Position numbers and translations under genes: made by a program. The notes under the pieces are model-generated. The model did not search any database, was not told where the DNA came from, and worked only from the letters and a program-made list of their open reading frames with translations. From NCBI RefSeq assembly GCF_003790525.1, contig NZ_CP033635.1: a stretch of DNA of 64,000 bases, one strand, 5' to 3'. This document shows, piece after piece, positions 12,552-21,234 of the stretch (position 1 is the first letter of the stretch; the number at the start of each line of letters is the position of its first letter). Source of the DNA: Escherichia coli. GTDB lineage: Bacteria > Pseudomonadota > Gammaproteobacteria > Enterobacterales > Enterobacteriaceae.

Positions 12552-13430
12552 TTAATGAACTTGCGGATCTGCCGGAGACGCGTTGTTGCGGATTTCAGCA
12601 ATATCCATCGCATTGAACAGATAGTGGTTACCGCAGTAATCACAATGCATGTCAATTTCGCCATCTTCCGCCAGGATGCTATCGACTTCTTCATCCGGCA
12701 GCGTTTTTAGCGCGTCGGCGCAACGTTCACGCGAGCAGGTGCATTTGAACTCCACATCCTGCGGATCGTAAACCGTCACCTCTTCTTCGTGATACAAACG
12801 CCACAACACTTCGTTTGCCGGTAAGGTCAGCAGTTCTTCGGTTTTGATGGTTTCGGTTAGCGTCGCCAGGTGGTCAAAGTCGTCCTGCTGGGCATTTTGC
12901 GCAGGCATTACCTGCAACAACATACCGCCTGCAGCCGGTTTGCCGTCTACGTCGCCGGTGCGAATAAACAGGCGCGTCGGCAACTGTTCAGAACGCATAA
13001 AGTAATCTTCCAGGCAGGCCGCCAGGGTATCACCTTCCAGACCCACCACGCCCTGATAGCGTTCGCCTTCGCTTGGGGTGATGGTGATCACCACGTAACC
13101 ATTGCCGACCAGCGTTTTCAGGTCGGCATTTTCTGGAATTTCGCCCTGCACGCGCGCTACACCGCGCATCTGCTGGTTGTTGTTACCGTTAATAACCGCC
13201 AGATTCATCGGACCGTCGCCTTGCAGCTGTACGGTGATATCACCATCAAACTTCAACGTAGCGGTTAACAGGCTGGTCGCAACCAGCAGTTCTGCCAGCA
13301 CGTTTTTAACGGGCTGCGGATAATCGTGATTCTCAAGGATCTGTTGCAGGGTTTCCGAAACGGTTACCAGTTCGCCGCGAACGGCAAAGTTTTCAAACAG
13401 ATAGCGATGTAATTGGTCATGTTGCGGCAT
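12552..13430 (-). CDS. hslO: Redox-regulated chaperone Hsp33
   Basis: Translation recognised; two in-frame ATGs (13436 gives MIMPQHDQ..., 294 aa; 13430 gives MPQHDQ..., 292 aa). Confidence 0.93.
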
Positions 13431-13454
13431 AATCATCTCTCTTGCAGGTGACAG

Positions 13455-13856
13455 TTATTCACTGTCGCCGTGTTTAAATCGTAACAGGTCGCGGCGCTCT
13501 TTTTTGTCCGGGCGTCGGTCCGGATGCGGCATGGTTAAGGCATTAAGTTTACGTGCCAGCGCCATTTTTTCGCGTTTCTCTACACTTTCCGCAGTCTCTT
13601 CATACAGCAAGGCTGCCTCGCTGGCGGGGCGACGCTGTTCAGTAATCGCCTTTACAATCACCGTGCGTTCGTCATTTCCCTGGCGCAGAGTGAGCGTGGC
13701 ATTCAGCTCGACGATTTTGCTTGGCTTGCTGCGCTGCCCGTTGTAATGCACCTTACCGCCTTCAATCATTTCACGGGCCAGCGCGCGGGTTTTATAAAAA
13801 CGGGCAGCCCATAGCCATTTATCCAGTCGAACCTCAACAGCAGGTTTTTCTTTCAT
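13455..13856 (-). CDS. hslR: Heat shock protein Hsp15, ribosome-associated RNA-binding S4 domain
   Basis: 133 aa; translation recognised. Confidence 0.94.
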   Translation of the reverse strand: MKEKPAVEVRLDKWLWAARFYKTRALAREMIEGGKVHYNGQRSKPSKIVELNATLTLRQGNDERTVIVKAITEQRRPASEAALLYEETAESVEKREKMALARKLNALTMPHPDRRPDKKERRDLLRFKHGDSE

Positions 13857-13866
13857 GGCATCTCCT

Positions 13867-14535
13867 TCACATTAGCGAGGGGATCAGGCGGCGGTAGTCA
13901 TTCAGTGACGGATGGCGTTGATACTGTTTCTCGGCAATCCCGGAGTCAGGATTAGTCACACCGAGGCAGTAACGAATACCAAATTGCGCGGCAGCATCGA
14001 GAATCGCTTCGCTGTCATCAATAAACAGCGTTCTTTCAGCTTTAAGACCCGTAGCTTCGGCCACCGCATGCCATAACCGCTGATCCTCTTTCGGATAACC
14101 AAATGTGTGGGTGGAAAGTAATAAATCAAGGTGTGCGTCCAGACCGGTATGCTCAAGTTTTACCGCCAGGTTGTGCGGATGCGCATTGGTGAGCAAAATT
14201 CGCTGCTTACCGCTGGCTTTCAGTGCCTCAAGAAACGGAATGGTATCTTCACGCAGTACGGCGCGCGGTCCCATCTCGGTGGTCATCGCACAGATATCCA
14301 GACCCAGTTGCTCACTCCAGTAATCAAGACAGTACCAGTTTAGCGTATGCTGTACGTCGTGATATTGCTGGCGCATATATTCCATCGCTTCCTGTGGCGT
14401 AACCCCGTTTTTCGCGCCCCATGTTTCAGGCACCAGCTTTTGCCAGAAATAGTTATCGAAGGCGAGGTCGAGCAACGTGCCGTCCATATCCAGCAGAACG
14501 GTATCTACGTCCTGCCAGGCAATGTTGATATGCAT
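13867..14535 (-). CDS. yrfG: GMP/IMP nucleotidase YrfG (HAD superfamily)
   Basis: ORF-track 237 aa trimmed to ATG at 14533..14535 giving 222 aa MHINIAWQDVDTVLLDMDGTL... (HAD motif DxDGT). Confidence 0.9.
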   Translation of the reverse strand: MHINIAWQDVDTVLLDMDGTLLDLAFDNYFWQKLVPETWGAKNGVTPQEAMEYMRQQYHDVQHTLNWYCLDYWSEQLGLDICAMTTEMGPRAVLREDTIPFLEALKASGKQRILLTNAHPHNLAVKLEHTGLDAHLDLLLSTHTFGYPKEDQRLWHAVAEATGLKAERTLFIDDSEAILDAAAQFGIRYCLGVTNPDSGIAEKQYQRHPSLNDYRRLIPSLM

Positions 14536-14599
14536 GAGGGAAATCTCCAGAGTGAAGCAATTTGCGCGACAGGGTAGCATAACCTGCCGCGCAAACGTG

Positions 14600-17782: not shown

Positions 17783-20335
17783 TCAGAACAATTCCTGTGC
17801 CTCGCCATTATCGATAATGGTCGTTCCCACCTCGTGCACCGCCTGTTGTGTCGGCTGCGTACCTTCGATGAAATACTCTTCGCGGCTGTTGCCACCATTA
17901 GCTAACTGCCCGGTGCTGCGATCGATATTCACCGTCACAATACCCGGCGGCGGCGTCAGCGGCTGCTCCGGCACACCTTCAAGAACGGCTTTCATATAAG
18001 CGTCCCATGCAGGCTGGGCACTCTTGGCACCGCCTTCGTAACCTGAGATCTGATCTTTAATCGCTCCAGAAGCCGTTGTATGACCGAGATTACGACGGTG
18101 ATCATCAAAGCCAATCCAGACCGAGGTCACAACGCCCGGACCGTAACCCGAGAACCACGCATCTTTCGAACTGTTAGTGGTACCCGTTTTTCCGCCTATA
18201 TCATGCCGTTGTAAATCACGACCTGCTCGCCAGCCAGTACCCTGCCAGCCTGGTTCACCAAAAATATTGGTGTTCAAGGCACTCTTAATCAGGAATGCCA
18301 GCGGTGTGTTGATGACGTGCGGTGCGTACTCCTGCGCGCCAGTCTTCGCCACTAACGCCTGATTTGCCTGCTCCAGCTGCGGCATTGGTACAGAAACATT
18401 CTGCTGCTCGCGGGAGATAGCGACATCTTCAACATCGTTATTTTCCAGAACGTTCGATTTCTGCGTATCACCGTAAATCACCGGAATATCGCATTCCGGG
18501 CAGGCTACTTTCGGTTTCGCTTCGAAAATCACGCCGCCCTGATCGTTTTCAATTTTGCTGATAAACCACGGGTCCACCAGGAAGCCGCCGTTCGCCATGA
18601 CCGCGTAGCCACGCGCCACCTGCATTGGGGTGAAGGACGCTGAACCCAGCGCCAGCGATTCGGTGTGGACAATGTTTTGTGCCGGGAAGCCGAAGCGTTG
18701 CAGATATTCTGCAGCGTAGTCGACGCCCATCGCCCGCATTGCGCGTACCATCACCACGTTTTTCGACTGACCCAGCCCCTGACGTAAGCGAATTGGACCA
18801 GCATATTGTGGCGGCGAGTTTTTCGGCTGCCAGTCAGAACCGGCACCTGCGTCCCAGCGAGAAATTGGCACATCGTTCAACATACTTGCCAGCGTCAGAC
18901 CTTTATCCATCGCCGCGGTGTAGAGGAACGGTTTGATGTTGGAACCCACCTGACGCAGTGCCTGGGTGGCGCGGTTAAACTTGCTCTGATTGAAATCAAA
19001 GCCACCGACCAGCGCCATAACGGCACCGTTTTGCGGATTGATCGACACCAGCGCCGAGTTCACTTCCGGCACTTGTGCCAGCCACCATGCATCGCCAACC
19101 TGACGAACCCAGATTTGCTGACCCGTTTGCAAAACATCGGTCACTTTACGCGGCGTCGGTCCCTGCTGAGTATCCGAACGGTAAGGACGCGCCCAGCGAA
19201 CGCCTTCCATACTCAATGCGACGGTCGACCCGTCCGCCAGCATCGCCGTCGCTTCCTGAGGATTGGCGCTGGTGACTGCGGCAGGCAGCAGAGGACCATA
19301 GGTCGGCAGCGCCTTCAACGTATCGGTAATCTTGTTGTTATCCCACGCCGATTCGCCCACTTTCCACAGCACATTTGCCGGGCCGCGATAGCCGTGGCGC
19401 ATGTCGTAGTCCAGCACGTTATTACGTACTGCCTGCTGTGCGGCCTGCTGTACTTTGCGGGTGATGGTGGTGTAAATGCGATAACCGTCTTCATAGGCAC
19501 TTTCGCCATAACGGTTATACATCTCCTGGCGCACCATTTCGCTCAGGTACGGCGCAGAGAAAACAATCTCCGGCGCGTGATAGTTAGCGTTAATCGCCTC
19601 AGTGTGTGTCTGATCGAACTGTTGTTGGGTGATATACCCTTCATCCAGCATCCGCGACAGTACGACGTTACGCCGCGCGACGGCACGATCCATTGAGTAG
19701 AGCGGATTAAAGGTGGAAGGCGCTTTCGGCAGCCCGGCTATCACCGCCATTTCGTTCAGCGTCAGTTGGTCGACCGTTTTACCGAAATAGACTTGTGCCG
19801 CAGCACCGACACCATAGGCGCGGTAACCGAGGTAAATCTTGTTCAGATAAAGCTCGAGGATCTCGTCTTTCGTCAGCAACTGTTCAATGCGAATCGCGAG
19901 GAAGACTTCCTTAATCTTACGCATCAGCGTGCGTTCTGGACTGAGGAAGAAGTTTCTCGCCAGCTGCTGGGTAATGGTACTCGCCCCTTGTGACGCGTGG
20001 CCGGAGAACAGCGCCACACTTGCCGCACGGAAGATCCCCACCGGGTCAACGCCGTGATGCTCGTAGAAGCGGCTGTCTTCCGTCGCGATAAAGGCTTTCA
20101 CCATCTCCGGCGGGATTTGATCCAACGTAACCGGAATACGACGTTTCTCACCGTATTGAGCAATCAGCTCGCCATCGGCGCTGTAAATCTGCATCGGAAT
20201 TTGCAGGCGAACATCTTTTAATGTCGCCACATCCGGCAGTTGTGGCTCGATGTAGCGGTATAGGCCATAAATCGAGCCTGCTCCCAGCAGAATGCAACAG
20301 ACTGCAAGGATCAAAAAATACTTTACGAACTTCAC
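17783..20335 (-). CDS. mrcA: Penicillin-binding protein 1A (bifunctional transglycosylase/transpeptidase)
   Basis: Translation recognised. Start ambiguous: GTG at 20333..20335 gives 850 aa MKFVKYFLILAV...; in-frame ATG at 20357..20359 gives 858 aa. Confidence 0.94.
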   Translation of the reverse strand: MKFVKYFLILAVCCILLGAGSIYGLYRYIEPQLPDVATLKDVRLQIPMQIYSADGELIAQYGEKRRIPVTLDQIPPEMVKAFIATEDSRFYEHHGVDPVGIFRAASVALFSGHASQGASTITQQLARNFFLSPERTLMRKIKEVFLAIRIEQLLTKDEILELYLNKIYLGYRAYGVGAAAQVYFGKTVDQLTLNEMAVIAGLPKAPSTFNPLYSMDRAVARRNVVLSRMLDEGYITQQQFDQTHTEAINANYHAPEIVFSAPYLSEMVRQEMYNRYGESAYEDGYRIYTTITRKVQQAAQQAVRNNVLDYDMRHGYRGPANVLWKVGESAWDNNKITDTLKALPTYGPLLPAAVTSANPQEATAMLADGSTVALSMEGVRWARPYRSDTQQGPTPRKVTDVLQTGQQIWVRQVGDAWWLAQVPEVNSALVSINPQNGAVMALVGGFDFNQSKFNRATQALRQVGSNIKPFLYTAAMDKGLTLASMLNDVPISRWDAGAGSDWQPKNSPPQYAGPIRLRQGLGQSKNVVMVRAMRAMGVDYAAEYLQRFGFPAQNIVHTESLALGSASFTPMQVARGYAVMANGGFLVDPWFISKIENDQGGVIFEAKPKVACPECDIPVIYGDTQKSNVLENNDVEDVAISREQQNVSVPMPQLEQANQALVAKTGAQEYAPHVINTPLAFLIKSALNTNIFGEPGWQGTGWRAGRDLQRHDIGGKTGTTNSSKDAWFSGYGPGVVTSVWIGFDDHRRNLGHTTASGAIKDQISGYEGGAKSAQPAWDAYMKAVLEGVPEQPLTPPPGIVTVNIDRSTGQLANGGNSREEYFIEGTQPTQQAVHEVGTTIIDNGEAQELF

Positions 20336-20454
20336 TGGAAATTTCCCATTTAGTTTCATTTGGGCAGTTTATAAACAAACGCGCGGTAGTATAAAGGCAA
20401 GCCAGACGCATTGATATACCCGTCAGAGTGACGGGTGATAAGGAGATCATCACA

Positions 20455-21234
20455 ATGGCATTTAAGATCTGGCAAATTGGTTTGCATTTACAACAGCAAG
20501 AAGCGGTAGCGGTTGCGATCGTGCGGGGCGCAAAAGAATGCTTTTTGCAACGCTGGTGGCGGTTGCCGCTGGAGAATGACATTATCAAAGATGGGCGGAT
20601 TGTTGATGCGCAGCGGCTGGCTAACACGTTGTTACCGTGGAGCCGCGAACTGCCGCAGCGTCATCACATTATGTTGGCGTTTCCCGCCAGTCGCACATTA
20701 CAGCGGTCATTTCCGCGCCCGTCGATGTCCCTTGGTGAGCGGGAGCAAACGGCCTGGCTGTCCGGGACGATGGCCCGTGAACTGGATATGGATCCGGACT
20801 CCCTGCGCTTCGATTACAGCGAAGACTCACTCAGTCCCGCCTATAACGTGACTGCCGCGCAAAGCAAAGAGCTGGCAACGCTGCTTACTCTGGCAGAAAG
20901 GTTGCGTGTTCATGTTAGCGCGATCACCCCGGATGCCAGTGCATTACAGCGATTCCTGCCTTTTTTACCTTCTCATCAGCAATGTCTGGCCTGGCGTGAT
21001 AACGAACAGTGGCTGTGGGCGACGCGCTATCGCTGGGGGCGCAAACTGGCGGTGGGGATGACTAGCGCGAAGGAGCTGGCGGCAGCGTTATCCGTTGATC
21101 CCGAAAGCGTCGCGCTATGTGGCGAAGGCGGATTTGATCCCTGGGAGGCCGTTTCTGTTCGTCAGCCGCCGCTACCGCCGCCAGGTGGAGACTTTGCCAT
21201 CGCGCTGGGGCTGGCGCTAGGGAAGGCGAACTGA
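20455..21234 (+). CDS. hofM: DNA utilization / competence pseudopilus assembly protein HofM (PilM-like)
   Basis: ORF-track 268 aa (GTG start) trimmed to ATG at 20455 giving 259 aa MAFKIWQIGLHL... Confidence 0.88.
   Translation: MAFKIWQIGLHLQQQEAVAVAIVRGAKECFLQRWWRLPLENDIIKDGRIVDAQRLANTLLPWSRELPQRHHIMLAFPASRTLQRSFPRPSMSLGEREQTAWLSGTMARELDMDPDSLRFDYSEDSLSPAYNVTAAQSKELATLLTLAERLRVHVSAITPDASALQRFLPFLPSHQQCLAWRDNEQWLWATRYRWGRKLAVGMTSAKELAAALSVDPESVALCGEGGFDPWEAVSVRQPPLPPPGGDFAIALGLALGKAN

Follow-up and report, generated by a model that had tools for sequence, protein, structure and literature searches.

Start codons of mrcA and hslO in an Escherichia coli chromosomal segment, each with two in-frame candidates

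The open reading frame of mrcA in Escherichia coli offers two start codons a few codons apart, and that of hslO offers another closely spaced pair, which raises the question of where translation of each gene begins. A close alternative in-frame start is by itself not unusual. An earlier note on this DNA, made from a reading of the letters, described the two candidates for each gene, with coordinates, frames and lengths that are exact, and held that the sequence alone does not decide between them. This is right for a bare reading of a single sequence, but it does not hold once comparative and Shine-Dalgarno (SD) checks are applied.

The window, by which we mean the whole 64,000-nt stretch that was analysed (NCBI RefSeq assembly GCF_003790525.1, contig NZ_CP033635.1), is E. 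coli chromosome, and a 411-nt query around the mrcA site matches many complete E. coli genomes at 100% identity. The mrcA open reading frame occupies positions 17783..20359 on the minus strand, downstream of an in-frame stop (TAA at 20371), and opens with an ATG (20357..20359) that would give an 858-aa product with the N-terminus MKLNGKFPVKFVKYF. The GTG at 20333..20335 lies in frame, exactly eight codons 3' of this ATG, and corresponds to an 850-aa MrcA/PBP1A; a third candidate, the TTG at 20314 (843 aa), is annotated in one public record (BED38630.1). The divergently transcribed hofM begins with an ATG at 20455 on the plus strand, 120 nt from the GTG. The hslO open reading frame (12552..13436, minus strand) lies downstream of the hslR stop codon (TAA, 13457..13455) and opens with ATG ATT ATG, of which the first ATG (13434..13436) yields a 294-aa protein beginning MIMPQ and the second (13428..13430), two codons on, a 292-aa Hsp33.

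We conclude that translation begins at the downstream candidate in both genes, at GTG 20335 (850 aa) in mrcA and at ATG 13430 (292 aa) in hslO, and put the probability of this at about 0.9. The verdict is based on conservation, on SD energies and spacing, on annotation and, for hslO, on an N-terminal peptide. Both starts are already right in the reference annotation, and the finding is an ordinary and already known one.

Conservation of the candidate start codons

A scan of species-representative genomes gave 80 mrcA loci from the Enterobacteriaceae, Erwiniaceae and Yersiniaceae. One of these (L086) was left out because its reported coordinates lie off the start, and the comparison thus comprises 79 loci together with the window, 80 Enterobacterales sequences in all. 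The position of GTG 20335 is GTG in every one of them (80/80). Parsimony on a coding-region tree infers zero substitutions at positions 0 to +15, and codons 2-5 (AAG TTC GTA AAG) show no variation among the 80 sequences, synonymous sites included. The triplet at ATG 20359 is ATG in 24/80, GTG or TTG in 21/80 and a non-start codon in 35/80, and no other site of the leader varies as much as its first base, for which parsimony gives 16 independent changes. In-frame stops fall between this position and the GTG in four taxa (L030, L045, L065 and L073), and an upstream in-frame start is wholly absent from 36 of the 80 sequences.

These comparative data contradict the reading in which ATG 20359 is the true principal start of mrcA, with an 858-aa product and a reference annotation that is wrong. 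This ATG is the first start codon of the open reading frame, and some older Salmonella records do annotate the 858-aa form, but in-frame stops or non-start codons occur in 39/80 relatives while the sequence downstream is invariant, and everything that favours GTG 20335 counts against it; we regard this reading as extremely improbable. The TTG at 20314 was also rejected as the mrcA start, the codon being TTG, TTA, TTC, TTT or CTA in relatives.

More distant relatives of mrcA were found by a protein search followed by retrieval of contigs (L088-L094). GTG AAG is kept at the mrcA start in L088-L093, among them an Edwardsiella MAG, three contigs at 73-81% identity and the Vibrio-like L093, and in L089 a TAG codon stands immediately 5' of the GTG, in frame. 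The Haemophilus-like L094 has ATG at the position of the GTG. Predicted MrcA N-termini from Vibrio, Idiomarina, Pseudoalteromonas and Pasteurellaceae-like sequences share the form M-[KR]-x-[IVL]-K, after which comes the membrane anchor. Polymorphism within E. coli is uninformative on this question because the 36 nt around the ATG (positions -41 to -6 of mrcA) are identical in 5423/5426 records, with ATG 20359 fixed within the species; the single E. coli variant examined in that stretch has a C-to-T change at -28.

The two hslO candidates were compared across 70 hslO sequences. The codon equivalent to 13430 is ATG in 70/70, and that equivalent to 13436 is ATG in 25/70 and otherwise AAA, ATA, AAC, ACC, ACT or others. 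Conservation of the upstream codons, which the earlier note had proposed as a check, is therefore decisive for both genes: GTG 20335 and ATG 13430 are invariant, but ATG 20359 and ATG 13436 are not. For neither gene are the upstream start codons and their frame conserved among relatives, as would be expected of an upstream extension.

Ribosome-binding signals and N-terminal evidence

The best duplex energy with the 16S 3' end was calculated for each candidate start, using as a control the hslR ATG, which has a strong SD (-8.8 kcal/mol). There is no SD for mrcA ATG 20359 (best duplex +1.2 kcal/mol). GTG 20335 has a weak one (-4.2 kcal/mol) in the SD-like element GGGA at 20344..20347 on the minus strand, positions -12 to -9, with 8 nt to the start; GGGA is nearly invariant across Enterobacterales, and the Vibrio-like L093 retains GGGAAAT-N6-GTG. 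The SD-like element of hslO is AGAGAGA (13437..13443, minus strand), of which GAGAGA is conserved in nearly all taxa. ATG 13430 scores -4.7 kcal/mol, with GAGAG at an aligned spacing of about 5 nt, and ATG 13436 scores -3.5 kcal/mol, with GAGAG directly abutting the codon and ending 1 nt before it. ATG 13436 is judged not to be a start because it is too close to GAGAG and is not conserved. Inspection of SD spacing had likewise been suggested as a means of choosing, and it does choose: ATG 20359 is without an SD, GTG 20335 has a correctly spaced GGGA, and the GAGAG of hslO fits ATG 13430.

The leader around mrcA ATG 20359 is A-rich and predicted to be unstructured. RNAalifold gives -3 kcal/mol around the mrcA start with no supported helix, and an Rfam scan of 20200..20500 at E<=10 returned only two chance matches and no known RNA family in the leader. 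In the mechanism that we favour, initiation on mrcA would occur at GTG 20335 by way of the weak, deeply conserved GGGA 8 nt upstream, within this unstructured A-rich leader, and the product would be the 850-aa PBP1A that begins M-K-F-V-K and runs on into the membrane anchor. Translation of hslO begins at ATG 13430, using GAGAG, to give the 292-aa Hsp33.

Two proteoforms of a single gene made by alternative in-frame initiation are represented in E. coli by PBP1B alpha and gamma. The mrcA gene is like that of PBP1B in being a class A PBP gene with two in-frame start codons near its 5' end, and a comparable dual initiation could be imagined in which GTG 20335 yields the main 850-aa protein and ATG 20359 a minor 858-aa form in the ATG-bearing lineages of Escherichia, Salmonella and Citrobacter. 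ATG initiates more strongly than GTG, is fixed in E. coli and is present in 24 of the 80 taxa at this site, and the A-rich leader, being predicted to lack structure, would make low-level initiation there possible. The difference from PBP1B is that the upstream candidate of mrcA is neither preceded by an SD nor conserved, and that no second product is documented. The 16 changes at its first base and the lack of an in-frame synonymous excess (see below) leave the extension unconserved either as a start or as a protein, and no coordinate near 3,522,847 appears among the novel or isoform ORFs of Stringer et al., a weak point since the locus may not have been covered. We consider dual initiation quite improbable, and infer that no minor product arises from ATG 20359.

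N-terminal peptide data, the remaining check that had been proposed, support ATG 13430 for hslO. The TRAINSPOTTER N-terminomics table (PMC13245402, Table S1 row 837) lists the initiation-derived peptide MPQHDQLHR for b3401, which that study classes as an annotated TIS with Ribo-RET and INRI-seq support, and the table has no extension entry for hslO. ATG 13430 thus combines a conserved start, a correctly spaced SD and an N-terminal peptide. The same table has no mrcA entry, and the predicted tryptic N-terminal peptide of MrcA is only two residues long. There is no mrcA entry in the supplements of INRI-seq, Stringer 2021, Nakahigashi 2016, Cappable-seq or Fijalkowski 2024, and a full-text literature search for mrcA with Ribo-RET, sRNA, UTR or Hfq yielded nothing relevant.

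Public records and residue numbering

RefSeq E. coli annotation, including that of MG1655 (b3396, 3522871..3525423, NP_417855.4), starts mrcA at the GTG and gives a protein of 850 aa. The earlier note had named 850 aa as the reference form of MrcA, and the MG1655 coordinates, which span 850 codons, bear this out. The b3396 start lies 120 nt from that of hofM, the same distance as GTG 20335 in the window. The K-12 gene mrcA (ponA), encoding the 850-aa PBP1A, is thus the same locus in the same organism, with its start at the GTG 20335 of the window; the window carries a different allele and otherwise shows no difference of substance. The exact 850-aa MrcA of the window is present in the protein collection (WP_121831956.1), and the exact 858-aa sequence has no match there. 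From 5,426 E. coli genomes a spread sample of 40 was drawn, none of which has a CDS annotated over the 36 nt spanning ATG 20359. The hslO gene of the window is likewise the E. coli b3401, which encodes the 292-aa Hsp33 (UniProt P0A6Y5, HSLO_ECOLI) and which RefSeq starts at the second ATG, the 13430 of the window.

The longer hslO form of 294 aa (MIMPQ) is found in older annotations (AAG58501.1, AAN82610.1 and others), with EDL933 and CFT073 among the genomes concerned. Structural records of Hsp33 contain both forms, 1I7F having the 292-aa sequence and the constructs of 1HW7 and 3M7M beginning MIMPQ; in PDB structures of PBP1a homologues the N-terminus is missing. Long-form records of either gene are choices made by annotators and depositors, and as such document a history of ambiguity and are not evidence on the in vivo start. 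Since the 292-aa and 294-aa forms are both on record, there are two residue numberings in the Hsp33 literature, which differ by 2. The significance of the start assignment is modest: knowing the right starts settles how the residues of PBP1A and of Hsp33 are numbered, and avoids spurious N-terminal extensions in constructs and in proteomics databases.

Promoter, leader and neighbouring conserved elements

A TATACT at 20388..20393 (minus strand), followed by a GC-rich CCGCGCG, probably serves as the -10 element of the mrcA promoter. The hexamer is invariant in the Enterobacterales sequences (80/80), and the Vibrio-like L093 and the Haemophilus-like L094 also have it, about as far from the start. 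Its retention across orders would place ATG 20359 inside the 5' UTR. Judging from the position of this promoter, the 5' UTR would be about 46 nt long and ATG 20359 an internal, non-conserved triplet of it, specific to certain lineages and carried along in the TATACT-promoted transcript.

A second -10-like hexamer, TATAAA (20373..20368), allows a different arrangement, in which a promoter TTTATA-N16-TATAAA with a transcription start at about 20361..20359 would place ATG 20359 at the head of a leaderless mRNA for the 858-aa form. The geometry fits, in that the spacer is 16 nt long and the hexamer is followed, 7 nt on, by a CA dinucleotide that is invariant in Enterobacterales. TATAAA nevertheless lacks the -7 T and was not called by the promoter scan. 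In 13 taxa it is replaced by TAGAAA, and neither L093 nor L094 has it, in contrast to TATACT, which all of the sequences retain and which, as the cross-order -10 element, predicts the 5' UTR of ~46 nt; moreover, the ATG that such a promoter would serve is itself unconserved. We think it very unlikely that mrcA is expressed in this way.

Across Enterobacterales there is hardly any variation in the 57-nt block 20416..20360, which includes a 10-bp palindrome, GTTTATAAAC. An antisense 40-aa open reading frame (20292..20414, plus strand) was rejected as the cause of the conservation, since stops interrupt its frame in about 19 taxa and its ATG is missing from several.

The leader also contains an out-of-frame mini-ORF of five codons (20332..20349, minus strand; ATG GGA AAT TTC CAG TGA, encoding MGNFQ), the stop codon of which overlaps the mrcA start in the sequence GTGA. 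Translation of mrcA could be coupled to it, with ribosomes that terminate at TGA 20332 re-initiating at the weak GTG. The frame is open as far as the overlapping TGA in 80/80 Enterobacterales (79 with ATG and one, L062, with GTG), it is present also in L088, L091 and L092 and, with a GTG start, in L089, and there is a sharp onset of conservation at A(-14)T(-13) for which SD pairing offers no explanation. On the other side, ATG 20349 has no SD (best duplex +0.4 kcal/mol), L090 keeps ATGGGAA with a shift of 1 nt by which the mini-ORF is lost, L093 has ACG in place of the ATG while keeping GGGAAAT-N6-GTG, and the mini-ORF is absent from the small ORFs of Stringer et al. In positions -11 to -1 there is no synonymous excess in any frame, the synonymous/non-synonymous counts being 11/37, 12/36 and 13/35 in the three frames, and counts so evenly matched do not speak for a conserved peptide, whether in the frame of the extension or in that of the mini-ORF. 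Such coupling seems to us unlikely, and initiation at GTG 20335 through GGGA is preferred.

We raise as a speculative and rather doubtful suggestion that the invariant ATGGGAAA-N6-GTGAAGTTCGTAAAGTAT (20349..20318) may be an element dedicated to controlling PBP1A translation, which could take the form of the five-codon mini-ORF feeding ribosomes to the GTG, or of a target for an RNA or protein regulator. If true, this would explain why a weak GTG and a weak SD are frozen across Enterobacterales, and also why the synonymous sites of mrcA codons 2-6 are frozen. The GTG/GGGA region, the conserved leader and the hofM competence promoter elements lying over the 5' end of mrcA could interest researchers working on PBP1A levels.

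Suppression of synonymous variation in mrcA extends to about codon 21. Cameron and Redfield (PMC1635313) assigned the CRP-S sites of the hofM (yrfD) promoter, which depend on Sxy, to a fragment that maps to 20179..20304, inside mrcA, and has its best motif matches at 20286..20271 and 20205..20190; these hofM CRP-S sites could account for the frozen GGA and TCG codons of mrcA. At the hslR/hslO junction there is a hairpin (13469..13447) with the hslR stop codon in its loop, which is kept with different stem sequences across taxa and has a mean z-score of -2.7 against shuffles.

Nucleotide-level conservation at the mrcA start

Synonymous variation in mrcA is absent from codons 1-5 and strongly reduced up to codon 21 (20273-20335, minus strand), with a mean codon entropy of 0.02 over codons 2-6 versus 1.13 over codons 7-120. 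This pattern of codon usage points to a nucleotide-level constraint over codons 1-21 that would be added to the one acting on the protein. A five-codon mini-ORF (ATG GGA AAT TTC CAG TGA; 20332-20349, minus strand) lies out of the mrcA frame, its TGA overlapping the GTG start codon at 20335 as GTGA. It is intact in all 80 Enterobacterales sequences (79 mrcA loci from species-representative genomes and the window); the frame is lost in a more distant relative (L090), and ACG replaces the ATG in a Vibrio-like contig (L093). The mini-ORF has neither a Shine-Dalgarno (SD) sequence nor a signal of frame-specific selection. One public record, BED38630.1 (843 aa), places the mrcA start at an in-frame TTG at 20314 (20312-20314, minus strand), within the membrane anchor; this start was rejected because the position is not kept as a start codon, being TTG, TTA, TTC, TTT or CTA across relatives.

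Probable and possible promoter elements upstream of and within mrcA

Upstream of mrcA is a 57-nt block (20360-20416, minus strand; -25 to -81 relative to the GTG) that is near-invariant in the Enterobacterales, and a 36-nt query overlapping it (20341-20376) is identical in 5423 of 5426 E. coli records. The TATACT and GC-rich CCGCGCG motifs in the block are likely the mrcA -10 element and discriminator. The same block contains a palindrome, GTTTATAAAC, and an arrangement of TTTATA-N16-TATAAA that is mirror-symmetric on both strands, the latter possibly representing divergent promoters for mrcA and hofM.

Two motifs resembling Sxy-dependent CRP (CRP-S) sites, TGGGA-N6-TCGAT (20271-20286) and TGCAA-N6-ATGCA (20190-20205), are located inside the mrcA coding region. 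Both fall on the fragment corresponding to 20179-20304 that served to demonstrate that CRP binds the promoter of hofM (yrfD) (Cameron & Redfield 2006, PMC1635313), and thus the competence-operon promoter seems to overlap the mrcA 5' end on the opposite strand.

The hslR/hslO junction and the yrfG-like start

Immediately 5' of the hslO SD is a hairpin, GGCGACAG-TGAATAA-CTGTCACC (13447-13469, minus strand), whose loop contains the hslR stop codon. Nearly all of 63 distinct relatives have a hairpin at this position (mean z -2.7), with stem sequences that vary through apparently compensatory changes. Lacking a T-run, the hairpin does not qualify as an intrinsic terminator.

The yrfG-like ORF (HAD phosphatase; 13867-14580, minus strand), upstream of hslR, shows the same type of start ambiguity as mrcA and hslO: from the first ATG it encodes 237 aa beginning MLPCRANCFTLEISLMHINIAW, and 15 codons in is an internal Met that we take to be the reference start.
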